Shown here: one piece after another, positions 1 through 12,077 of the stretch | How the letters are laid out: each line of letters begins with the position of its first letter | Position numbering within the stretch: position 1 is the stretch's first letter | The notes under the pieces: generated by a model | What the model was told of the DNA's origin: nothing | Databases searched by the model: none | The model's input: the letters and a program-made list of their open reading frames with translations, nothing else | Made by a program: the position numbers and the translations under genes | Assembly (NCBI GenBank): GCA_964411925.1 | Contig: CAYPNI010000003.1 | Span: forward strand, 2,175 to 66,174 | Direction: 5' to 3' | DNA from: an uncultured Nitrospirales bacterium | GTDB lineage: Bacteria; Hydrogenedentota; Hydrogenedentia; Hydrogenedentales; GCA-2746185 | Length of the DNA: 64,000 nucleotides

Positions 1-2689
1 GCACGAGAAACACGAAAAGCACGGAGAGCGGGAAGACGATCGTCGCCGTGTTGCCCGCCGTCTTCTGCTCGTAGGCGAGACCGGTCCACTCGAAGCCGAA
101 TCCGTGAGGCAGGACGTCGCCCGCCAGCCGTTCCATCGCCGCGAGCCCCTGTCCCGAACTGACCCCCGGCAGCGTGCTACCGTTGACCGTGGCCGAGGGA
201 TACAGGTTGTACCGCGTGACGAGATCCGGCCCGGCCGCGGGGCGGATTCCCAGAACGGAGCCCAGCGGGACCATCGCGCCGGTCGCGCTGCGCGTCCGCA
301 GGTTCATCACATCATCGATCTCCAGCCGGAACGGCGCATCGGCCTGCGCGCGCACCTGGAACGTGCGGCCGAGAAAGTTGAAGTCATTCACGTACGCCGA
401 GCCGAGATAAATCCTGAGCGTTTCGAAGACGCTTTCCACCGGGACATCCAGCATCTGGGCGCGCGTGCGGTCAATGTCGGCGTAGAGCTGCGGCGTGTTC
501 GCCCGGAACGTGGAAAACACCGCGACCAGGCCCGGCTCCGCGTTTGCCCGGCCCACCAATTCGTCGGTCGCGGACTGCAACATCGCGTAGCCGCGGCCCG
601 ACCGATCCTGTAACTGCATCTGGAATCCGCCCGAGGTGCCGATGCCAGGCACCGGCGGTGGGTTCAGCACAAAGATGAAGGCGCCCTTGATCGCGCCGAC
701 GCGGTGCTGCAGGTCCTGAATAATCTGTACCGCGCCCAATCCGTGTTCCACGCGCTCTTCGAAGGGATCGAGGCCGGTGAAAATCGCCGCGGCGTTCGGC
801 GCATTCGTGCGTGACGCACCGGAGAACCCCGCGAACGCGACCGCGTTCCGGATACCGGGGGTCTCCCGGCAAATCTCGGAGACCTGCTTCACGATCTCGT
901 CCGTGCGCTCGAGTGAGGCGCTGTCGGGCAGCTGGATCGAGACGATCAGGTAGCCCTGGTCCTGCTCGGGGACGAATCCCACGGGGACGCGGCCGAACAT
1001 GGAATACGTCGCGCCGAGCAGCGCCACGTAGACGATGAGCACGATGACGCTCACGCGCAACAGCCTCGCGACCGCCCCGGCGTAGAGACTCGTCGAACGG
1101 TCGAAGCCCCAGTTGAACAGCCGGAAAAACCAGCCGAAGAGCGCCGCGCCGAGCCGCGCGGCCGGCGAATGACTCGCCCCTTCGGGCTTGAGCAGGATCG
1201 CGGCGAGCGCGGGGCTCAGCGTGAGCGAATTCACCATCGAGATCAGGGTGGCGCACGCAATGGTGATTGCGAACTGCCGATAGAACTGGCCGGTGATGCC
1301 GCTGATGAAAGCCGTGGGCACGAACACAGAGGTGAGCACCAGCGAAATCGCGACGATGGCGCCGCCGACCTCGTCCATCGCGACGCGCGCGGCCTCACGC
1401 GGCTGAAGCCCCTTCTCGATGTTTCGCTGCACGTTCTCGACAACTACGATGGCATCGTCCACCACGATGCCGATGGCCAGCACGAGACCGAAAAGCGTCA
1501 GATTGTTCAGGGAGAACCCCAGCGCCTGCATGACGGCGAAGGTGCCCACAAGTGAGACCGGAATCGCGAACAGCGGGATGATGGACGCGCGCCAGGACTG
1601 CAGGAATATCACGATGACGAGGACCACGAGCACGACCGCTTCGTAGATCGTTTTGTAGACTTCGTGAATCGATTCCGCGACGAATTCCGTCGGGTCATAC
1701 ACGATGTCGAACGCGAGACCTTCCGGGAAGGACTCCGACAGTCCGGCCATGGTCTCGCGCACCGCTTCGGACGTCGCGAGTGCGTTCGACCCCGGCCGCT
1801 GAAAGATCACCAGTGCGACGGCGGCCTGGTTGTTCAGGTAGCTGTTCGTGACGTAATCCTGCGCCCCGAGCTCGACGTACGCGACGTCGCGCAGTCGCGT
1901 GAACCGCGCGTCCGCGCCGGTCTTGATGATGATCTCCTCGAATTGCTCGGGCTGAATCAGCCGGCCCTGCGCGTTCACCGTGAGCTGGAACGCCGCGCTG
2001 CCCGCCGGAATCGGCGGCTGGCCGAGCGTGCCCGCGGCGACTTGCACGTTTTGCGCCTGCAGCGCGCGGACTACGTCCGGCGCGGTGAGGTCGATGGCGG
2101 CGAGCTTGTCCGGGTCGAGCCAGACGCGCATGCTGTATTCGCGCGCGCCGAACATGTTGATGCTGCCGACCCCCGGGATGCGGGCGAGCACGTCGCGTAC
2201 TTGCAGCAGCGCATAGTTACTGATGTAGAGCTGGTCCAGCGAATCGTCCGGCGAAAGCATGTGGACGACCATGAGGATGTCGGGCGAGCTTTTCGCGGTC
2301 GTCACGCCCAGCCGCCGGACTTCCTCGGGCAGCCGCGTCTCCGCGATCGCAACGCGGTTCTGCACCAGGACCTGCGCCTTGTCCAGGTCGGTGCCGAGCC
2401 GGAACGTAATGGTCAGTTGCATGCGGCCGTCGGTGGTGCAATTCGACTGCATGTAGAGCATGTCTTCGACGCCGTTCACTTCTTGCTCGATGGGCGTGGC
2501 GACCGTTTCCGCCACGGTGGCGGCGTTCGCACCGGGGTAGACCGCGGTGACGACGATCGTGGGTGGCGCGACTTCGGGATACTGGGCGACGGGCAGGCCG
2601 AGGTACGCGATGCCGCCGACGAGGACGACGACAATCGATATCACGAAAGCGAAGATGGGCCGGTCGATGAAGAATCGCGGGATATTCAT
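1..2689 (-). CDS. RND (AcrB/HAE1-type) efflux permease, 3' end lies beyond window start
   Basis: My own minus-strand translation from ATG 2689 gives MNIPRFFIDRPIFAFVISIVVVLVGGIAYLGLPVAQYPEVAPPTIVVTAVYPGANA. An in-frame GLVLAIGIVVDDAIVVVENV motif lies near 1500. The frame is still open at position 1. It is absent from the track because there is no in-window stop. ATGA overlap with the MFP stop. Confidence 0.9.
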   Translation of the reverse strand, partial: MNIPRFFIDRPIFAFVISIVVVLVGGIAYLGLPVAQYPEVAPPTIVVTAVYPGANAATVAETVATPIEQEVNGVEDMLYMQSNCTTDGRMQLTITFRLGTDLDKAQVLVQNRVAIAETRLPEEVRRLGVTTAKSSPDILMVVHMLSPDDSLDQLYISNYALLQVRDVLARIPGVGSINMFGAREYSMRVWLDPDKLAAIDLTAPDVVRALQAQNVQVAAGTLGQPPIPAGSAAFQLTVNAQGRLIQPEQFEEIIIKTGADARFTRLRDVAYVELGAQDYVTNSYLNNQAAVALVIFQRPGSNALATSEAVRETMAGLSESFPEGLAFDIVYDPTEFVAESIHEVYKTIYEAVVLVVLVIVIFLQSWRASIIPLFAIPVSLVGTFAVMQALGFSLNNLTLFGLVLAIGIVVDDAIVVVENVQRNIEKGLQPREAARVAMDEVGGAIVAISLVLTSVFVPTAFISGITGQFYRQFAITIACATLISMVNSLTLSPALAAILLKPEGASHSPAARLGAALFGWFFRLFNWGFDRSTSLYAGAVARLLRVSVIVLIVYVALLGATYSMFGRVPVGFVPEQDQGYLIVSIQLPDSASLERTDEIVKQVSEICRETPGIRNAVAFAGFSGASRTNAPNAAAIFTGLDPFEERVEHGLGAVQIIQDLQHRVGAIKGAFIFVLNPPPVPGIGTSGGFQMQLQDRSGRGYAMLQSATDELVGRANAEPGLVAVFSTFRANTPQLYADIDRTRAQMLDVPVESVFETLRIYLGSAYVNDFNFLGRTFQVRAQADAPFRLEIDDVMNLRTRSATGAMVPLGSVLGIRPAAGPDLVTRYNLYPSATVNGSTLPGVSSGQGLAAMERLAGDVLPHGFGFEWTGLAYEQKTAGNTATIVFPLSVLFVFLV

Positions 2690-3960
2690 GGCGCGGGCGG
2701 TTCCTGTGTCGGATCGGTGAGCGACTCGACAACGGGAAGGCGCCGCATCAGTTCCTCGGGCGTCTCGATGGCCGCGGGTTCAATGTCCACGCGCTCCGCG
2801 GTCACCGTCTGGCCCGGCCGCGCACGCTGCACTCCATCGACAATGACCAGATCGAGCGTGGACAGGCCCTCGTCTACGACGCGCAAGCCGTCGATCATCC
2901 GGCCGAGCTTCACCTCGCGGATGCTGACCGCGTCCGCCTCGTCCACGACGTACACGAAGGTGCGCGACTGGTCCGTCACCACGGCGGAATCGGGGATCTG
3001 AATCGCCGGATACCGGCCCAGACCGATGAGGCGGATGCGGACGAAGAGTCCCGGCAGCAGCAGGTCGTCCGGGTTGCGGAACACGGCACGCCCGCGTAAG
3101 GTGCCCGTATTGGGATCGATCTGATTGTCCACGAAATCCATCACGCCTTCATGACCGAACGCATCCTCGTCGGCGAGTTTGATCAGGACGGTGTTGGGTT
3201 CGGTGCGCGAGCTTTCCCGGACGCCGGAGATGTTGAGCCGTGTGTACTTGAGCATGGCGCGTTCGCTCACGTCGAAGTAGCAGTGAATGGGATCGAGCGA
3301 TACGATGGTAGTGAGCAGCGTGGATTCCGACGAGCCGCCGCTCACGAGATTGCCCACGCTAACATTGTGCCGGCTGACACGGCCGCGGATTGGCGCGCGC
3401 ACGTGCGTGAATTCGACGTCGAGTTCCGCGCTCTGGATGCTCGCGCGGGCCGCCTCGACTTCCGCCGCCGCTTGTTGAACGGACTTGCTTCGTGTGTCGT
3501 AGTCCTCGGCGGAAATCGCCCGGTCCTCGAGCAGCGTCTCCGCGCGTTTGAGGTCGTTGTTCGCGAGATCGAGCCGGGCCTGTGCGCGTGACAGTTCCGC
3601 CCTCGTCGCCCGCAGAACGGCCTCGAACGGCCGCGGATCGATGACGAATAGCAAGTCGCCCTTTTCGACGATCGCGCCATCCTGGAAATGAATCGACTCG
3701 AGGTATCCGCTGACGCGCGCCCGCACCTCGACGCTGTCGATGGCGCGAAGGCGGCCTGTGTATTCGTCCCACTCGACCACCTGGCGCTCGACGGGTCGCG
3801 CGACCGACACGGCCGGCGGCGGCATGGGCGGGGGCGCGGGCGGGGAGCCGCACGCGCCCAGCAACACACTCAGTACAAGCACCGGGGCGGTGCGGACCAC
3901 GTTGCTCAGCACGTTCGCCCTCCCAGGCGTGATTCGCCGCGACGGACAGTGATCAGTCAT
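2686..3960 (-). CDS. RND efflux periplasmic adaptor (membrane fusion protein), lipoprotein
   Basis: 424-aa ORF. Lipobox LLGAC, coiled-coil hairpin (RAELSRAQARLDLANNDLKRAE), and biotinyl-lipoyl-like and beta-barrel segments typical of the AcrA/MexA family. Start overlaps the dps stop (ATGA at 3957-3960). Confidence 0.9.
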   Translation of the reverse strand: MTDHCPSRRITPGRANVLSNVVRTAPVLVLSVLLGACGSPPAPPPMPPPAVSVARPVERQVVEWDEYTGRLRAIDSVEVRARVSGYLESIHFQDGAIVEKGDLLFVIDPRPFEAVLRATRAELSRAQARLDLANNDLKRAETLLEDRAISAEDYDTRSKSVQQAAAEVEAARASIQSAELDVEFTHVRAPIRGRVSRHNVSVGNLVSGGSSESTLLTTIVSLDPIHCYFDVSERAMLKYTRLNISGVRESSRTEPNTVLIKLADEDAFGHEGVMDFVDNQIDPNTGTLRGRAVFRNPDDLLLPGLFVRIRLIGLGRYPAIQIPDSAVVTDQSRTFVYVVDEADAVSIREVKLGRMIDGLRVVDEGLSTLDLVIVDGVQRARPGQTVTAERVDIEPAAIETPEELMRRLPVVESLTDPTQEPPAP

Positions 3961-4466
3961 TCCGCCCTCGTGATTTCCGAAAGATACCAGGCGCGTCCCT
4001 CAGTCTCGTCTATCCAGTTTTCGATCAGACTCGCCGTGGCCACATCGCCGTGCCGCTCGCAAATCTCGTGCGTGGAGCGTAGCGAGCGCGCGAGCTGCCG
4101 GTTGTCGGCCAGCAGTTCCAACAGCATCTCCTCCGGCGCGAGGAACTCGCTGTTGTTGTCTTTCAGGCACTGGTGTCGCGCGATGTCGCCGATGGACCGG
4201 ATTGCCGTGCCCCCGATCTTTCGCGCGCGTTCGGCGATCGGATCGGTCATGGCCATCAGTTCGGATGCATGTTCGTCGAGCAACAGGTGGTAGTCGCGAA
4301 ACGACGGCCCGGACATATGCCAGTGAAAGTTCTTGGTCTTGAGAAAGAGGGTGAACACGTCCGCCAGCAATGGCCGTAGGGCGTCGGATATATTTTCGAC
4401 GCCTTGGTCCCCGAGATCGTTCGGTTGGGGATTCAGATGCATTCTCGCCGATGACGTTCTCTTCAT
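3957..4466 (-). CDS. dps: Dps-family ferritin-like DNA-binding protein
   Basis: LADVFTLFLKTKNFHWHMSGPSFRDYHLLLDEH...IAERARKIGG matches Dps ferroxidase-site helices. I chose the ATG at 4466 because it forms an ATGA overlap with the upstream stop. ATG 4442 is an alternative. Confidence 0.85.
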   Translation of the reverse strand: MKRTSSARMHLNPQPNDLGDQGVENISDALRPLLADVFTLFLKTKNFHWHMSGPSFRDYHLLLDEHASELMAMTDPIAERARKIGGTAIRSIGDIARHQCLKDNNSEFLAPEEMLLELLADNRQLARSLRSTHEICERHGDVATASLIENWIDETEGRAWYLSEITRAE

Positions 4467-6268
4467 AGCCCCGTCCGATCTCCCAGGCTGAGCGACGAAC
4501 CCTGCTGATAGCCGCCGTACACGGCCACGGGCGACCACGCCGGACTCACCGGCGGCGGTGGCGGCGGGGCGAAACTATCGAAGGGGGCCGCCGCGTAGAC
4601 GACGTCGCCGCCGACGACCGTTAGTACCGATTCGATGCCCTTGATCTCTTCCGCGTCGATGGAGAAGTAGTCTGCGGACAGCACGGCGAAGTCGGCGTAT
4701 TGACCCGGAGCGATCCGCCCTTTAATGTCTTCGTCGCCGCTGAACCAGGCACTGCCGGCGGTATACAACGCGAGTGCCTCGGCACGGGTGAGCCGATTCT
4801 GGCGCGCGGCGATTCGCGTACCGCCGACCGTCTTACCCGTGACCATCCAATACAGCGACACCCAGGGGTTGTGGCTGCTCACGCGGGTGGCGTCTGTACC
4901 CGCGCCGATCGGCAGTCCAGCGTCCAGCATTGCGCGCAGGGGCGGCGCGAAGGCCGCGGCCTTCCGGCCATATCTCTCGGCGAATGCTTCGCCCGCGAAG
5001 GCCATGCGGTCCTGAATCGCCACGCCGCCGCCGAGGCGTTTGATGCGCGCGATGTTCCCGGTGCTGACGGTCTCCGCGTGGTCGATGCACCACCGCGCGG
5101 TGTATCCCGTCTCGGCGAAGATGGGCTCGAATACGTCGAGGATCCGCGTAATGGACTCGTCATAGGTCGCATGGATCCGGATCGGCCAATCGCGCTCCGC
5201 GAGCAACCGGACCACGGCGGACAGCTCCGTCTCCATTGACGGTTTCAACTCGGGCCGCGGGGCGAGGAAGTTTTCGTAGTCGCCCGCGGACCACACCAGG
5301 TTTTCACCGGCTCCCTCGGTCAAATAGCCGTTCAACCGCTCAACCGCGAGGTTGTGATTCAGTTTTTCGCTCGTGGTCCAGCGTTCGTAGTCCTGCAGTT
5401 CGGAGCCGGACACTTGCGCGAACAGGTAGTTCGAGATGCGCAGCGGAAGTCCTGGATTTGCCGCCAGGGCCGCCGTCGCCGCATAGTCCGCGGGATACAC
5501 GTGCCCGCCGCCGCCCGTGTCAACGGCGCTGGTGAGCCCGAAACGATTCAGCTCGCGGAAAAAATGCTCCGTAGAGTTCACCTGATCGTCCGCCGAGAGC
5601 TGCGGCAGTCGCGCGATCGTCGTGTAGAGGATCGCCGGACTTGGTTCTGCGTGCAGAATTGCACCGCCGCCCTCGACAAACTCGAAACGGCCTCCTGGCG
5701 GCGGAACGCTTTCCGGTGTCAGCCCAAACGCCCGCACGCCCGCCGCGTTCAGCAATCCCTGGCTGTAGAGGAACAGCACGAACACCGGCGCATCCGGCGA
5801 CGCTTCGTTCAGTTCCGCGACGGTCGGCATGCGACGTTCGCGAAACTGGTAGGGCGACCACCCGCCAATGACGCGCACCCACTGGCCTTCGGGCGTTCGT
5901 TTTGCCTGCTCGCGAATCATTTCGAGTCCACGCTCGAGCGAGTCGACACCGTCCCAGCGCAGTTCGAGGTTGTAGAACCGGCCGCCGCGCACGACGTGCA
6001 GGTGCGAGTCGTTCAAGCCCGGAATGATTGTGCGGCCCCGCGCGTCGATCGTTCGCCCGCTCTCCACGCGGTACGCCGCAACGGCGGCGTCATCGCCCAC
6101 CGCGACGAACAGGCCGTCCTTCACCGCGAACGCTGTCGCGCGCGGCCGCGCGCCGTCCATCGTGTACACGTCCGCATTGACGACGACCAGGTCTGCCGGG
6201 TGCGCCGATGCGCCGACCGCAACGATGGCCATTGCCATCGCGAGCGCGATCAGGAATCGAGCGGTCAT
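4463..6268 (-). CDS. Secreted metal-dependent amidohydrolase (amidohydrolase-3 / YtcJ-like)
   Basis: 601 aa. N-terminal signal peptide (ALAMAMAIVAVGASA). IIPGLNDSHLHV metal-binding motif. C-terminal GTDA...ADFAVL segment typical of the amidohydrolase superfamily. Confidence 0.8.
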   Translation of the reverse strand: MTARFLIALAMAMAIVAVGASAHPADLVVVNADVYTMDGARPRATAFAVKDGLFVAVGDDAAVAAYRVESGRTIDARGRTIIPGLNDSHLHVVRGGRFYNLELRWDGVDSLERGLEMIREQAKRTPEGQWVRVIGGWSPYQFRERRMPTVAELNEASPDAPVFVLFLYSQGLLNAAGVRAFGLTPESVPPPGGRFEFVEGGGAILHAEPSPAILYTTIARLPQLSADDQVNSTEHFFRELNRFGLTSAVDTGGGGHVYPADYAATAALAANPGLPLRISNYLFAQVSGSELQDYERWTTSEKLNHNLAVERLNGYLTEGAGENLVWSAGDYENFLAPRPELKPSMETELSAVVRLLAERDWPIRIHATYDESITRILDVFEPIFAETGYTARWCIDHAETVSTGNIARIKRLGGGVAIQDRMAFAGEAFAERYGRKAAAFAPPLRAMLDAGLPIGAGTDATRVSSHNPWVSLYWMVTGKTVGGTRIAARQNRLTRAEALALYTAGSAWFSGDEDIKGRIAPGQYADFAVLSADYFSIDAEEIKGIESVLTVVGGDVVYAAAPFDSFAPPPPPPVSPAWSPVAVYGGYQQGSSLSLGDRTGL

Positions 6269-6292: not shown

Positions 6293-7051
6293 CTACGACT
6301 TGGCCTTCGCCGCTTCCTGCGCCTTCAGATAGCTCTCGTAGACGGCGCGGTAATTCGGCACGAGATGGTTGTAGATCGCGCCCCATTGCGCCGCATCCGG
6401 CCGGTTCCACGTCCGCTGAAATTCGCACAGCACCGCGTTCGTGGACACCGGAATGATTCCGGCCTGCGCCATCCGCGCAATCGTCGTCTGGGACGCCATC
6501 ACGCTCGGATCGCCCGAGGCGTCCGTGACGAAGTAGACGTTGTATCCGTCCGCCTTCGCCTGCAGCGCGGGGAACGCCACGCACACACTGGTCCACACCC
6601 CGGCGATGACCAGCGTCTTGCGTCCGGTCGCCTCGACCGCCTTCACAAAATCCGCGTTGTCCCACGCGCTAATCTCGCCTTTGCGCGGGACGTATTGCGC
6701 TTTGGAACCCAACTGCAACAGTTCGTCCATCAGCGGACCGTTCGGACCATTGGGTTCGGACGCGGTCATGATAATCGGCGCCTTGGCCTGCTCCGCGATT
6801 TTCACCAGGCCGATGGTGTTGTTGCGCAGTTCCGCGACCGGTACGTCCTTGACCGTCTGAAACAGCCCGGTCTGATGGTCGAGCAGCAGAATCACTGAGT
6901 CGTTCGGATTGAGCAGCACCTTCGACGCCGCTTCGCTGGGCTGGCGAGACAAACCCGGAATCGGCTGTCTCTCGCGGTCCTGTCCCAACACGTCCGGCGC
7001 GAGCGCCAGCATTACCAAAATCACAGTCGCTCCGATCCACATACGGTTCAT
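6293..7051 (-). CDS. Secreted isochorismatase-family (cysteine) hydrolase
   Basis: 252 aa. Signal peptide. LLLDHQ...LVIAGVWTSVCV core matches the isochorismatase-like fold with its catalytic Cys. Confidence 0.8.
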   Translation of the reverse strand: MNRMWIGATVILVMLALAPDVLGQDRERQPIPGLSRQPSEAASKVLLNPNDSVILLLDHQTGLFQTVKDVPVAELRNNTIGLVKIAEQAKAPIIMTASEPNGPNGPLMDELLQLGSKAQYVPRKGEISAWDNADFVKAVEATGRKTLVIAGVWTSVCVAFPALQAKADGYNVYFVTDASGDPSVMASQTTIARMAQAGIIPVSTNAVLCEFQRTWNRPDAAQWGAIYNHLVPNYRAVYESYLKAQEAAKAKS

Positions 7052-7105: not shown

Positions 7106-8077
7106 TCAGGATTTGATGAACGCCAACAAGTCCGCGTTCACTTCGTCCGCCTGCGTCGTGCAGATGCCGTGCGATCCGCCCTTGTACACTTTGAGTTGTG
7201 CTCCCTTGACGAGCTTCTCCGTCAGCAGCGCCGAAGCGCCAATCGGCACAATCTGGTCGTCGTCGCCATGCAGTATGAGCGTCGGGACGTCGAACTTCTT
7301 GAGGTCCTCCGTAAAATCCGTTTCGGAAAATGCCTTGATGCAGTCGTACGCGCTCTTGTGTCCCGTCATGACCCCCTGCATCCAGAACTTGTCGATGATG
7401 CCCTGTGACGGCTTCGCGCCGGGCCGGTTGTACCCGTAGAACGGGCCGCTCGCGAAGTCCCTGTAGAGTTGCGACCGATCCTTGAGCGAGGCGGCGCGCA
7501 GTCCATCGAACACTTCGATGGGCGTACCCCCGGGATTCGTCGGCGACTTCACCATGATCGGCGGCACCGCTCCAATGAGGACTGCCTTGGCGACTCGCTT
7601 CGTTCCGTGCCGTCCGATGTAGCGCGCGACTTCGCCGCCACCCGTCGAGTGGCCCACATGCACGGCGTCCTCGAGATCGAGTGATTCGACAAGCGTCGCC
7701 AGGTCGTCCGCATAGGTATCCATCTCGTTGCCGTTCCACGGCTGGCTCGAGCGACCGTGCCCGCGGCGGTCGTGCGCGATGCACCGGTAACCCCGGTCGG
7801 CAAGGAAAATCATCTGCGCTTCCCAGTCGTCCGAGCTCAGCGGAAAACCGTGACTAAACACAACGGGCTGGCCGCTGCCCCAGTCCTTGAAGTAGATCGA
7901 CGTCCCGTCCGCGACCGTCACCGTGTTCACGGTACGATCGCCTTTTTTTGCGCCTCTCGCTGCGCCTTCCGCCGTGCCCGCGGACGACACGGCGAGCGCA
8001 GCGCCGACGGCTGCCGCGCCGCCCATCAGAACGTTTCGACGCGACAAGCCCGGTTGACTCGATGTTTCGTGTGCCAT
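7106..8077 (-). CDS. Alpha/beta hydrolase of the non-haem haloperoxidase / perhydrolase-arylesterase type, with twin-arginine signal
   Basis: 323 aa. [15 protein letters not shown] is a Tat-like leader. FSHGFPLS...HDRRGHGRS...[12 protein letters not shown]...HGDDDQIVP are the hallmark motifs of the CPO/PFE family. Confidence 0.85.
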
Positions 8078-8107: not shown

Positions 8108-8605
8108 TCAGCGTCCCTTCGCCATGTCGCCGCGCAGCACCATGCACGTACTGAACGACTTGGCGACGAGGCTGCCCTTCTCGTCCGTAATCTCACATTC
8201 GATGAAGCCAATCGACCGCGTCCGGCGCGTCACGCGCGCGCCGGCGAGTATCCGCGCGTCCCAGATCGGCTTGAAAAAATTCATCGAAATGTCCAACGTC
8301 GTAAACGTCTCGTCGTCTTCGAGCGTCGTCGAGAGCGCGATGCCCATGGCGGCATCCGCGAAGTCGCACAGAATCCCGCCGTGCAACGTGCCCATGGGAT
8401 TTGCGTGGCGCCGCTCCGCGTGCATTTCCATGTCACACTCGCCTAGCTCGACCCGCGTCGGGTGGAACCCAATCAGGTCGGCCACCGGCGGGCCCGGCAG
8501 TTCGCCCGTTGCGAGACGTTTCAGCGACTCCAGATGCCGGGTCCCCTTGGGCATCGCAACGGCCGCGCTATGCTTTGATATCGAATCCGGCATCGTGAGG
8601 CCCAA
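8108..8605 (-). CDS. PaaI-family hotdog-fold thioesterase
   Basis: 165 aa. NPMGTLHGGILCDFADAAMG motif of PaaI/YigI-type thioesterases. Confidence 0.8.
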   Translation of the reverse strand: MGLTMPDSISKHSAAVAMPKGTRHLESLKRLATGELPGPPVADLIGFHPTRVELGECDMEMHAERRHANPMGTLHGGILCDFADAAMGIALSTTLEDDETFTTLDISMNFFKPIWDARILAGARVTRRTRSIGFIECEITDEKGSLVAKSFSTCMVLRGDMAKGR

Positions 8606-8614
8606 CGGAGATCG

Positions 8615-9067
8615 TCAAACTACGTTAAGGTCGACTTGGATGTTGCCGCGCGTCGCCTTCGAGTACGGGCAGATTTGGTGCGCGCCCTCGACGATCTCCT
8701 GCGCAACGGTGAGATCCACGCCGGGCAAACTCACGTTGAGTCGCGCCCGCAGAAAATACCCATCGGAACCCGAGCAGAGGTCCACCTCCGCGTCCGTGGC
8801 GAAGGCCGGGGGCAGCTTGATCTTTTTCTTCGACGCCACCAGCTTGATGGCGCTCGTGAAGCAAGCCGACCAGCCAACGGCAAAGAGCTGTTCAGGGTTG
8901 GTCCCCTCGCCGGGCGTACCGGGCACGGTGAGTTTCACATCGAGCCGCCCATCAGACGTACGGGACGTTCCTCCCTCCCGGCCGCCGGTGGTGTGTGTCT
9001 TGGCGGTGTAAATGACCTTTACGCTCTGACCCAACGCGCCTTCCGCTGGATTCGTAGTTGTTGCCAT
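8615..9067 (-). CDS. ohr: Ohr organic hydroperoxide resistance peroxidase (OsmC/Ohr family)
   Basis: Start at internal ATG 9067 (MATTTNPAEG...), preceded by an AGGAG 6 nt upstream. NPEQLFAVGWSACF and ICPYSKATRGNI carry the two conserved Ohr cysteines. Confidence 0.9.
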   Translation of the reverse strand: MATTTNPAEGALGQSVKVIYTAKTHTTGGREGGTSRTSDGRLDVKLTVPGTPGEGTNPEQLFAVGWSACFTSAIKLVASKKKIKLPPAFATDAEVDLCSGSDGYFLRARLNVSLPGVDLTVAQEIVEGAHQICPYSKATRGNIQVDLNVV

Positions 9068-9128
9068 GTCTCGTTCTCCTGCGTAACTCGCATCGGGAAC
9101 ACTCAAACGAATTGCGATCGCGTGTAGG

Positions 9129-9143
9129 GCAATCGCCGTGCCA
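9129..9143 (-). promoter_or_regulatory. Sigma-54 (-24/-12) promoter upstream of ohr
   Basis: Minus strand reads TGGCAC-GGCGA-TTGC, an exact match to the TGGCAC-N5-TTGC consensus. It is intergenic, correctly oriented, and about 60 nt upstream of the ohr ATG. Confidence 0.75.
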
Positions 9144-9193
9144 GTCGTAAGTCGTTTGGTGATGGAAGGGACACGAAAATCGCGGCACGAGAT

Positions 9194-9209
9194 TTCGAAA
9201 ATTTTCGAA
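9194..9209. promoter_or_regulatory. Perfect 16-bp palindrome TTCGAAAATTTTCGAA, candidate activator (UAS) or bending site
   Basis: Self-complementary 16-mer centred about 80 bp upstream of the transcription start predicted from the sigma-54 promoter. It lies between the activator gene and ohr. Confidence 0.45.
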
Positions 9210-9311
9210 AAGCGGTGAGAAATTCGTCGAGAAACCGACGGCACGGTTCTTGAACGATGACCGCTGCGTTAGCGTGGTGTTACGAACGGCAATGTCGCGG
9301 ATCGAATACGT

Positions 9312-12077
9312 TTAGTCCGCGCGAAAGCGATTTTTGTTGATTCGCAAAGAACGAATCTTCGAGTCGAGCGTGGAGGGCGGCATGCCGAGCTTTGCCGCGG
9401 CGCCACGCGGGCCCGCGACGCGGCCCTTCGAATCGGCCAGCGCCTTTTCGATCAGTTGCTTCTGATGATCGGCAACCTTCGTGGAAAGCTTGCGGCTGGC
9501 CGCTCCAGGCAGCGGTGGCTGTTGTGACAGCCAGCTCGCGTCCACGGTGAACTCCTCCGTGTCGCAAACAATCACGGACCTCTCGATCACGTTCTGCAAT
9601 TCGCGAATATTGCCCGGCCAGGGGTACGAGGTGAGCAGCTCCAGCGTCTTCAGGCTGATGCCGCGAAACCGCTTGCCCGCCCGTGCGGCGTACCGGCCTA
9701 CGAAGTACTCCACAAGCAAGGGAATGTCATCCGCGCGATCGGACAACGCGGGAAGATCGATCGGAAAGACGTTCAGCCGGTAGAACAAATCGCTGCGAAA
9801 CTTCCCGCCCACAATCAGGGCCTGCAGATCCCGGTTCGTCGCGGCAATGATGCGCACGTCGATGCGAATTGGGTCGTTTCCGCCGACGCGCTCGAACTCT
9901 CGCTCCTGGAGCACGCGCAACAGCAGAACCTGGGTTTCGATCGGCAACTCGCCCACTTCGTCAAGGAAAAGCGTTCCGCCTTCCGCAAGTTCGAACCGAC
10001 CCAGCCGCCGCTGTACGGCACCCGTGAACGCGCCTTTTTCATGACCGAACAACTCGGAAACGACGAGTGAAGGCGGAAAAGCAGCGCAGTTCACCGTCAC
10101 GAAGGCGCGCCCCGCGCGGTTCGAACGCTTGTGAATCGCGCGGGCGACCAGTTCTTTTCCCGTGCCGGTCTCGCCCGTAATCAGCACGGTCGAATCGGTC
10201 CGCGCGACCTGATCGACCCGCGCCAGTACAGCGCGAAGCGAAGGCGATATGCCCACGATTTCCTCAAACATGTGCTTGGCGTCGAGTTCCTCGCGAAGCG
10301 CCACGTTTTCACTGCGGATGCGTTCTTCTTCCTGCTTTCGCTCGTCGATGTCCACCCCCGAGACATACCACCGAAGCACGCCGCCCTGCTCGTCAAGCAT
10401 CGGCTTGAAGTGGTTCAAATACCACCGGTATCGGCCATCCGCCATCTGCATCCGGTACTCGGACTCGAACGAGAAGGGTTGAGTAATCGCGCGGTTCACG
10501 TGGTCCCGCACGGCGGCGCGATCTTCCGGGTGCATCCGATCGATCAGCGCGCCCGACATCACCTCCTCGTTCGTCAGACCGAACAGCCGCAGCACGGACT
10601 CGTTGGCATATTGCACGTCGCCGGAGATCGAGATGACACTGATCGGATAGGGAATTGCATCGACGATTTCGCGCGATTCGCGCTCGTTCCGCCTGATCCG
10701 CTCCTCTGCATGGACCCGCTCCGTCACGTCCATGACCACGCCGTAGTACTCGCTGAGCTCGCCGGTCTCGGTGGTTCGCGCGCGCAGGAACACACGGATG
10801 TGTTTGATGGCGCCGCTCGGGAATAGAAGCCGGTACTCAATCGAAAAATCGAGTCCGTCACGGGAGCCCCTGGAAAGGAGGTCATCCCACATCGTCCGAT
10901 CTTCAGGATGGATACGCCCGCGGACGAGTTCGAGCGTCGGCGTTGCCGTTTCTTCCACTTCGTATATCCGATACATTTCAGCGGACCACCACAGATTGTC
11001 GCTGTCCGGCCGCCAGGAGAAGCTGCCCGTAAGGCTCAGCCGCTGCCCCTCGGCCAGGTGTGCCTCGCTCCGGGATAGCGCCTCGCGCGCACGCGTACGC
11101 TCGATCGATATGGTCGCCAGGTGGGTGATCTGATCGATGAGTGCGTGATCGTCCGCCGACGGCGAACGGGGCTCGCGCGAATGAATGGCGAACGTCCCCA
11201 GCACCGTACCGTCAGCCGAAATAATCGGAGACGACCAGCACGCGCGCAGACCACTGGCCAGCGCGACCGCGCGAAACCCCGCCCAGTGAGGATCGTTCGC
11301 TATGTCCGCGGAGATGACTTGTTCGCGACGGTGGACCGCAGCGCCACAGGAGCCCAGCGTCGGATCCGCCGGGGCGCCGTCCACCGCCAACTTGTACGTA
11401 TCCGGTAGCGACGGAGCAGCGCCAATCGACAACCGATTCGAGATCGGATCCAGAATCAGAATCGACGCTATCGAACACGTCGAGAATTCCTCCACGACGC
11501 GGCACAGAGCGTCGAGCACGGAGGTGAGCGGATAGCCCTTGCCGATCATGCCGAGGATCTGGTTTTCCGCGTCGAGCAACGCTTCGGACCGCCGCCGGTC
11601 TTGAATGTCGATGCCCGTGCCATACCACTTCGCAGGGGCACCGTTGCTGGAGAGGTCCGGTTTCGCCTGGAACAAAAACCAGCGGTACTCGCCATCCGCG
11701 CGCTTCACCCGCGCTTCGAGCTGGCCGGGCCGCGGCGAAGCCTCCAGCGTGCGCCACGTGTCCACTAGCGATCGCACGTCGTCGGCATGAATCAGGTTGG
11801 ACGAAATCCAGCCCCAGTCCCGGATTTCCCCCGTCGGCAGACCCGTGTAGTCAGCCCAGGCTTGATTCAGAAACTCGATCGACCCGTCCGGCGTCGAACT
11901 CCAAACCAGACCGGGAGCGATATCCACCACGAACCGCGACAGGACATCATTCGCGGAAGTCGTCGGGAGCGAAGAAATCGGCACGGGAGTCTCGTCCATG
12001 CGCCCTCCGACGCGGAATAGACTAGCCGTGCATTCTAGTTCAGAATCGGCCATACCCTCAACAGACCGCCGGTTCAT
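9312..12077 (-). CDS. Sigma-54-dependent transcriptional activator (bEBP) with PAS-GAF-PAS-PAS sensor region, AAA+ domain and C-terminal HTH; no receiver domain
   Basis: 921 aa. GETGTGKE Walker A, GAFTGA loop (EKGAFTGA), RADDIPLLVEYF, WPGNIRELQNVIER, and a C-terminal Fis-type HTH (AAKLGMPPSTLDSKIRSL). Confidence 0.92.
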   Translation of the reverse strand: MNRRSVEGMADSELECTASLFRVGGRMDETPVPISSLPTTSANDVLSRFVVDIAPGLVWSSTPDGSIEFLNQAWADYTGLPTGEIRDWGWISSNLIHADDVRSLVDTWRTLEASPRPGQLEARVKRADGEYRWFLFQAKPDLSSNGAPAKWYGTGIDIQDRRRSEALLDAENQILGMIGKGYPLTSVLDALCRVVEEFSTCSIASILILDPISNRLSIGAAPSLPDTYKLAVDGAPADPTLGSCGAAVHRREQVISADIANDPHWAGFRAVALASGLRACWSSPIISADGTVLGTFAIHSREPRSPSADDHALIDQITHLATISIERTRAREALSRSEAHLAEGQRLSLTGSFSWRPDSDNLWWSAEMYRIYEVEETATPTLELVRGRIHPEDRTMWDDLLSRGSRDGLDFSIEYRLLFPSGAIKHIRVFLRARTTETGELSEYYGVVMDVTERVHAEERIRRNERESREIVDAIPYPISVISISGDVQYANESVLRLFGLTNEEVMSGALIDRMHPEDRAAVRDHVNRAITQPFSFESEYRMQMADGRYRWYLNHFKPMLDEQGGVLRWYVSGVDIDERKQEEERIRSENVALREELDAKHMFEEIVGISPSLRAVLARVDQVARTDSTVLITGETGTGKELVARAIHKRSNRAGRAFVTVNCAAFPPSLVVSELFGHEKGAFTGAVQRRLGRFELAEGGTLFLDEVGELPIETQVLLLRVLQEREFERVGGNDPIRIDVRIIAATNRDLQALIVGGKFRSDLFYRLNVFPIDLPALSDRADDIPLLVEYFVGRYAARAGKRFRGISLKTLELLTSYPWPGNIRELQNVIERSVIVCDTEEFTVDASWLSQQPPLPGAASRKLSTKVADHQKQLIEKALADSKGRVAGPRGAAAKLGMPPSTLDSKIRSLRINKNRFRAD

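Follow-up and report, generated by a model that had tools for sequence, protein, structure and literature searches.

A predicted sigma-54 promoter and an 18-bp palindrome between ohr and a PAS/GAF-type activator gene in the genome of an uncultured bacterium

Introduction

The Ohr thiol peroxidase gene, ohr, is known from Xanthomonas, Bacillus, Pseudomonas and others as a target of OhrR, a MarR-family repressor sensitive to cysteine oxidation, which acts at a housekeeping-type promoter and is usually encoded beside ohr. The locus described here raises the question of whether an ohr gene can be placed under a promoter of the -24/-12 class, i.e., one that is silent without an ATP-dependent activator, and, if so, which protein might activate it, from which site, and in response to what. 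The window (the whole stretch of DNA that was analyzed, 64,000 nt) belongs to a MAG of an uncultured organism (273 contigs, 88% complete, 4.48 Mb), and a sequence-only reading of it had proposed that ohr is transcribed from a sigma-54 promoter, that a palindrome further upstream serves as the enhancer of a sigma-54 activator (bEBP) encoded next to it, and that this would be a regulatory logic different from the one known for ohr.

Results

The promoter region upstream of ohr

The gap between the activator gene and ohr is 244 nt long (9068-9311) and contains the predicted promoter cassette. Within it, TGGCACGGCGATTGC at 9143-9129 of the minus strand agrees with TGGCAC-N5-TTGC at 10 of the 10 core positions (TGGCAC-GGCGA-TTGC, with the -24 GG at 9142-9141 and the -12 GC at 9130-9129), the GG and GC being 10 nt apart, as in YTGGCACG-N4-TTGCW-like sigma-54 sites. 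The exact core that had been read in front of ohr is therefore indeed there, intergenic and pointing at ohr, with 62 nt from the C of the -12 GC to the ohr ATG; a 12-nt offset after the GC would place the predicted start near 9118-9117 and leave a leader of about 50 nt. The sigma factor such a site calls for is encoded in the genome (rpoN, a 503-aa open frame on contig C9, Sigma54_DBD 216 bits). As to chance, the window has two exact matches, against 0.18 expected from shuffles and the 0.1 estimated earlier, while genome-wide 24 exact matches stand against the approximately 10 expected from base composition in the 4.48-Mb assembly, a 2.4-fold excess, which makes a lone exact match modest evidence at best, and not a decisive one.

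Directly upstream of the -24 element lies a block, AAACGACTTACGAC (9144..9157, minus strand), which is conserved in alignments A1 and A3 and whose version in the relatives described below reads TTTTCAA-N4-TTACG-N2-TGGC, with TTA, TGGC and TTG invariant in six loci; the TTTCAA-N4-TTA part resembles an IHF core, the copy in the window being degenerate. A simple scan of 9068-9311 found no sigma-70-like -35/-10 pair (the consensus used is of the E. coli type and may not fit this phylum), and a terminator scan of the same gap yielded only a weak hairpin, located at the -12 element. An Rfam search of 8400-9500 gave no match, and the predicted folding of the leader was no better than that of shuffles (z=0.12).

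Two further features of the region are worth recording in their own right. An inverted repeat, GCGATTGC-N7-GCGATCGC (9114-9136, minus strand), flagged by the terminator scan, covers both the -12 element and the predicted start, and may act as an operator or fold into a leader hairpin; its conservation among the relatives is not obvious. Another exact sigma-54 promoter match is found in the same genome outside the window, on contig C11 (approximately 8827-9300), and is followed by what appear to be short ORFs in tandem that share a motif (...GQRNEYA...AFALLS.LALLP..FA, then a stop). The match at position 8827 of that contig was considered as a similar cassette and rejected, having no matching dyad and unrelated downstream ORFs.

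The palindrome and other candidate activator sites

The palindrome reported as 16 bp long (TTCGAAAATTTTCGAA, 9209-9194) is in fact a perfect 18-mer, TTTCGAAAATTTTCGAAA (9210-9193), which is the proposed upstream activating sequence. Its center (9201.5) lies exactly 60 bp upstream of the center of the -24 GG; measured from the predicted start, the distance is approximately 84 bp (about 80 bp was given before), which falls within the 70-150 bp expected of an enhancer. The palindrome occurs once in the 4.48-Mb assembly, where the next best site has three mismatches, and when the upstream 120 nt were shuffled, a dyad matching at least 7 of 8 arm positions turned up at its position in one of 500 shuffles. 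The enhancer region has a GC content of 52.5%, compared with 64% for the window.

Between the palindrome and the promoter, GATTTTCGTG (9172..9181, minus strand; alignments A1 and A3) includes a third TTTTCG half-site (9179-9174), which is 22 nt past the second and 32 nt past the first, i.e., roughly in helical phase with them. This block aligns with GATTCGTG of the relatives' loci L172 and L173, and the half-site in it may be an additional one for the activator. On the other side, just past the activator stop, AACCGTGCCGTCGGTT and CGTCGGTTTCTCGACG (9225-9248, minus strand), a pair of dyads that overlap each other 90-98 bp ahead of the GG, could be a weak terminator of the activator transcript or extra binding sites.

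The activator gene

The next gene upstream on the same strand (9312..12077, minus strand) encodes a sigma-54 activator of 921 aa, for which the public gene call starts at Met27 (11999), and which is laid out as PAS-GAF-PAS-PAS-AAA+(GAFTGA)-HTH, without a receiver domain. The identification of this neighbor as a GAFTGA-containing activator is borne out by a Sigma54_activat match (PF00158, 239 bits, residues 607-773), the GAFTGA motif in the translation, three PAS domains and a GAF domain. The C-terminal HTH, putatively of the Fis type, scores just under the cut-off (PF02954, 19.6 bits vs. 22), the matches to the FhlA model and to a NifA structure extend to residues 916-917, and the segment GAAAKLGMPPSTLDSKIRSL is highly conserved among homologs. 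Approximately 14 bEBPs are encoded in the genome, the sensor and the HTH of this one being present in one copy; with the palindrome, the sensor and the HTH each unique in the genome, the arrangement fits a dedicated local regulator.

Among nine homologs of the same architecture, C192, C244, C280, D258 and D262 (P0002 numbering) are invariant in the GAF domain, and no His is, which makes the three cysteines candidates for sensing, judging by their conservation. Assignment of the GAF domain to the free-methionine-sulfoxide-reductase type was dropped, the PDB sequence search returning marginal, unrelated GAF matches (E=0.054), and a single-sequence AlphaFold2 model of the domain was too poor for a fold search (mean pLDDT of 54.8).

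Relatives of the activator and their promoters

Searches of 60 same-order genomes recovered neither ohr nor the activator, and among 134 further genomes of the phylum none gave a match to the activator, so that orthologous gaps from close relatives are not available for alignment; a scan of genome contigs with the activator gave only partial relatives (PAS-AAA-HTH, approximately 57%), with no ohr nearby. This patchy distribution of the two genes suggests horizontal acquisition, and the base composition (59-66% GC for the genes vs. 64% for the genome) carries no sign of a recent transfer.

Comparison thus relies on homologs from a search of 5.8 billion proteins, which are of the same or an extended architecture, 54-60% identical to the activator, and come mostly from soil metagenomes and Acidobacteria MAGs. 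DNA was retrieved for ten homologs, and the tallies refer to ten loci of nine proteins (L086, L087, L089, L090, L091, L172, L173, L174, L176 and L178); L175 (P0012, 1516 aa) was left out of them, as it has no convincing cassette. All ten loci have a GG-N10-GC promoter with 8-10 of the 10 core positions in the intergenic region adjoining the activator gene, eight of them downstream of that gene and in its direction, and two (L090 and L174) divergent from it, against a background of 0.074 matches at 8 or more of the 10 core positions per 250 nt per strand in the fetched DNA. In six loci, the promoter flanks can be aligned (TTTTCAA-N4-TTACG-N2-TGGC...TTGC), despite activators that are only 54-60% identical and downstream genes that differ.

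The relatives preserve the position and the symmetry of the palindrome, though not its sequence. In six of 11 loci when the window is counted (the window, L176, L086, L089, L091 and L174), a strong dyad with 7 or 8 of 8 arm positions is centered at -60 to -62 from the GG, each being matched by fewer than 1% of shuffles, and weaker dyads are seen in the same -60 region of L173 and L172. The dyad arms, moreover, sort with the HTH of the adjacent activator: PRSTLESKIRSLK activators go with TCGCCA..TGGCGA, the PP/PA/AP-STL activators, that of the window included, with TTCG or CACGAA-type arms, and the PRQTLDSRIK activators with TTCAGAA..TTCTGAA. Such co-variation is what a dyad recognized by its neighboring activator would be expected to show; it is suggestive and not proof, because the sequences fall into three related phylogenetic groups that may owe their resemblance to shared ancestry.

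The ohr gene

The product of ohr (8615..9067, minus strand; ATG at 9067-9065) is an Ohr-family thiol peroxidase of 150 aa, which counts as a true Ohr by TIGR03561 (157.7 bits vs. a cut-off of 88.85) and matches solved structures (PDB 4mh4, E=5e-53; P. aeruginosa Ohr 1n2f, E=2e-34). It contains R30, E59, C69 and C133, which we take to be the catalytic set, with a C-C spacing of 64 and an E-C spacing of 10, as in the P. aeruginosa protein. The AGGAG Shine-Dalgarno sequence noted earlier is found at 9080-9076, 8 nt before the ATG. A longer frame from GTG 9244 (8615-9244, minus strand, 209 aa), which would span both the promoter and the palindrome, was rejected as spurious, since neither homologs nor solved Ohr proteins extend upstream of ATG 9067 and the AGGAG stands before this ATG; gene callers could well mis-start ohr at that GTG.

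It is apparently the single Ohr-family gene of the genome, and no MarR-type gene is found in its immediate flanks, the neighbors being the bEBP upstream and a 4HBT thioesterase downstream. Eighty close Ohr homologs from soil metagenomes (64-82% identical) were compared, and none had a bEBP in the flanking DNA that could be inspected (up to 3.5 kb) or a comparable promoter just upstream; sigma-54-like matches 296-360 nt upstream of homologous ohr genes were discarded, as they lie inside cytochrome P460 coding sequence. Many of these soil-metagenome homologs follow a same-strand cytochrome P460 or hydrolase gene. In loci such as L100, L104, L107, L110, L115, L119, L122 and L132-L134, a P460 gene stands ahead of ohr on the same strand, and 10 of 12 loci have 8-113 nt between the two genes, which suggests a P460-Ohr operon, as yet unstudied; cytochrome P460 and hydrolase genes are also among the cargo of the activator locus L087.

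Genes downstream of ohr

Downstream of ohr, seven genes follow on the same strand, spaced by approximately 9-54 nt or overlapping, and a scan found no convincing terminator between the genes of the string. The second gene of the string encodes a hotdog-fold (4HBT/PaaI-type) thioesterase (8108..8593, minus strand; Pfam 4HBT, 59.8 bits), at a distance from ohr of 9 nt if counted to a TTG start at 8605 or 21 nt to the ATG at 8593, which is the one used here. It is followed, all on the minus strand, by a cofactor-free perhydrolase, an alpha/beta hydrolase of the non-heme chloroperoxidase type (7106..8077; PDB 1a8s, chloroperoxidase F, E=3.8e-138), an isochorismatase-family hydrolase (6293..7051; Pfam, 85.7 bits), an amidohydrolase (4463..6268; Amidohydro_3, Pfam, 345.7 bits), a Dps/ferritin-like protein (3957..4466; Pfam Ferritin, 92.4 bits), the start of which overlaps the amidohydrolase stop, an RND membrane-fusion protein (2686..3960; Pfam HlyD_D23) and an RND (AcrB-type) transporter (1..2689; Pfam ACR_tran, 935 bits) that runs off the window. 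The perhydrolase has approximately 50 extra N-terminal residues, the solved chloroperoxidase F beginning at its residue 52, and in the translation these look, by eye, like a Tat-type signal; an exported cofactor-free haloperoxidase would be an unusual member of an ohr operon.

Cargo of the activator family

What the relatives place behind the promoter differs from one locus to another within a common theme of antioxidant genes, the perhydrolase being the most conserved and recurrent item: in L086, L087, L089 and L178 it is 66-76% identical to that of the window, i.e., more conserved than the activators themselves, and more distant alpha/beta hydrolases occur in L090, L091 and L174. The cargo of L178 also includes an OsmC peroxidase, and that of L172, the locus with the closest relative of the activator, a catalase, Dps and a membrane-fusion protein (an efflux-pump subunit). 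Most relatives have, as the first gene behind the promoter, one for a small STAS-like (anti-sigma-antagonist-like) protein of 88-96 aa (L086, 7960-8226; L089, 3722-3988; L091, 4960-5250; L178, 6457-6726), which is absent from the window; L172 seems, by eye, to have kept a truncated copy at approximately 5377-5497.

In none of the relatives' loci is ohr the first gene, and, as the 80 Ohr homologs have no such promoter either, the link to ohr comes from this single locus. Conservation of the motifs in relatives, which the sequence-only reading had put forward as a test, thus holds for the cassette together with its activator (10 loci) and not for the cassette together with ohr (none of the relatives and none of the 80 homologs). 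The placement of ohr first behind the cassette, so far particular to this genome, looks like a recruitment into a pre-existing sigma-54 module, and the activator, enhancer and promoter, as compared across these loci, appear to travel together as a modular cassette whose cargo is exchanged.

Discussion

The proposal made from the sequence alone, that ohr is served by a sigma-54 promoter and that the palindrome is the enhancer site of the neighboring activator, gains support from the presence of rpoN, the ten loci, the position of the dyads and their co-variation with the HTH. We regard it as likely that this promoter is functional, is activated by the adjacent PAS/GAF activator via the palindrome, and drives ohr and probably the string of eight genes that begins with it. 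What the sequences show directly is the motifs, the domain architecture, rpoN and, in relatives, a conserved promoter and dyad position; binding of the activator, dependence on sigma-54 and the extent of the operon are inferred. Sigma-54 RNA polymerase would form a closed complex at TGGCAC-N5-TTGC (9143-9129); the adjacent activator, as dimers, would occupy the 18-bp palindrome, and probably also the extra TTTTCG half-site, approximately 85 bp upstream of the start; upon a signal received by the N-terminal PAS/GAF modules, the AAA+ ring would open the promoter using ATP; and transcription would enter ohr and probably continue into the genes for the thioesterase, perhydrolase, isochorismatase, amidohydrolase, Dps and RND pump. 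That the signal is an oxidant, an organic peroxide or a peracid-related cue is a guess made because of the cargo, and one to which we would give somewhat less than even chances.

The rival explanations, which are dual control, service by a different activator, and a chance match combined with read-through, amount to a clear minority view even when pooled, and each of them is improbable. Dual control would mean that the resting activator keeps a basal housekeeping promoter, which overlaps the enhancer, repressed, leaving the sigma-54 promoter to provide an induced burst; such an arrangement is documented for PexR and ahpC (PMC12754779), the AT-richness of the enhancer region (52.5% GC vs. 64% for the window) would suit it, and some basal expression of the single apparent Ohr-family gene would be useful, whereas the absence of a -35/-10-like pair from 9068-9311 speaks against it, as far as an E. 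coli-type consensus fits this phylum. Alternatively, the promoter could be real and served by another of the approximately 14 bEBPs that the genome encodes, the palindrome being bound by a different protein, e.g., a repressor. Across a huge protein family the recognition helix hardly changes, yet the dyad arms do, which casts doubt over which bases the HTH reads; however, the activator gene and the cassette are adjacent in every relative, even in the divergent L090 and L174, the HTH variants correlate with the dyad arms, and the palindrome is unique in the genome. That the match is there by chance and the palindrome unrelated, with transcription of ohr starting at an unrecognized promoter of the housekeeping type or reading through from the activator gene (possible, as no clear terminator separates the two), is improbable too: approximately 10 of the genome's 24 exact matches are indeed expected by chance, and close Ohr homologs elsewhere do without a sigma-54 promoter, but promoters at the homologous position in 10 of 10 relatives' loci with aligned flanks, dyads at a conserved distance and the lack of a sigma-70-like site in the gap scanned speak against it.

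If, as we consider likely, ohr is activated from the sigma-54 promoter by its neighbor, the locus shares with OhrR systems the target, i.e., the Ohr thiol peroxidase, and presumably the purpose, induction under organic-peroxide stress; it differs from them in that a MarR-type gene is usually adjacent in OhrR loci and none flanks ohr here, and in that the promoter is of the -24/-12 class. Receiver-less, GAF-containing bEBPs that sense a ligand directly are well known in NorR, FhlA and NifA, and it is the FhlA and NifA models that the AAA+-HTH part of the activator resembles most (NF011958, 376.8 bits; TIGR01817, 365.8 bits; NifA structure PDB 9qq6, E=3e-86), with scores that are far under the equivalog cut-offs (376.8 vs. 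830 bits for FhlA and 365.8 vs. 528.85 bits for NifA), a sensor region that is unrelated in arrangement to those of NorR, FhlA and NifA, and different target genes. Our literature searches found no paper linking ohr or OsmC to sigma-54, none on a link between chloroperoxidase and sigma-54, and none giving an FhlA binding site for comparison.

The closest parallel in mechanism is PexR of Myxococcus xanthus, a receiver-less GAF-AAA+-HTH bEBP that binds dyad-symmetric sites and places ahpC and katB, which adjoin its own gene, under sigma-54 control (PMC12754779). In 2025, PexR became the first experimental case of sigma-54 control of peroxide defense. PexR senses H2O2 via a Zn/Fe site (H102, H120, C122 and D140), has an enhancer, CACCG-n6-CGGTG, that is present in three copies, and is reported to have homologs in phyla that include Acidobacteriota and Nitrospirota; the paper makes no mention of ohr (PMC12754779). 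In Burkholderia pseudomallei, RpoN2 affects the expression of katE (PMC4745423). The regulatory logic proposed here is different when set against OhrR, and is not without a precedent in sigma-54 control, which PexR provides.

Like PexR, the activator of the window is a bEBP without a receiver, has a GAF sensor, and is accompanied by dyad sites and by sigma-54 promoters of adjoining defense genes, and by analogy it probably works like PexR. It is not itself a PexR, because the architecture (a single N-terminal GAF in PexR vs. PAS-GAF-PAS-PAS before the AAA+ domain), the enhancer (CACCG-n6-CGGTG being absent from the window gap, which holds TTTCGAAAATTTTCGAAA and the TTTTCG half-sites) and the targets (ahpC and katB vs. 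ohr, perhydrolase, Dps and an RND pump) all differ, as probably do the conserved GAF residues: set beside the published His/His/Cys/Asp site of PexR, the window family shows three invariant cysteines and no invariant His. This suggests a second, architecturally different activator family acting like PexR, in this case for organic-peroxide or xenobiotic defense.

A broader and decidedly tentative proposal, which we hold to be rather unlikely as it stands, is that the PAS-GAF-PAS-PAS family, widespread in soil bacteria and unstudied, amounts to a portable cassette of sensor, enhancer and promoter that senses an organic peroxide, a peracid or a related oxidant directly, perhaps via the invariant GAF cysteines, and drives a perhydrolase-centered defense module into which Ohr, OsmC and catalase have been recruited. 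If true, organic peroxides would be sensed by a sigma-54 route that is neither that of OhrR nor that of PexR. For the organism itself, an ohr gene behind an activator-gated promoter would imply tight, signal-gated expression, as opposed to the textbook derepression by OhrR. The locus, with the activator, its presumed 18-bp site and the promoter brought together within 250 bp, is a well-defined test system and could offer a route to the ligand of an abundant PAS/GAF family; a clue to the physiological signal may lie in the conserved association of the activators with a cofactor-free perhydrolase.
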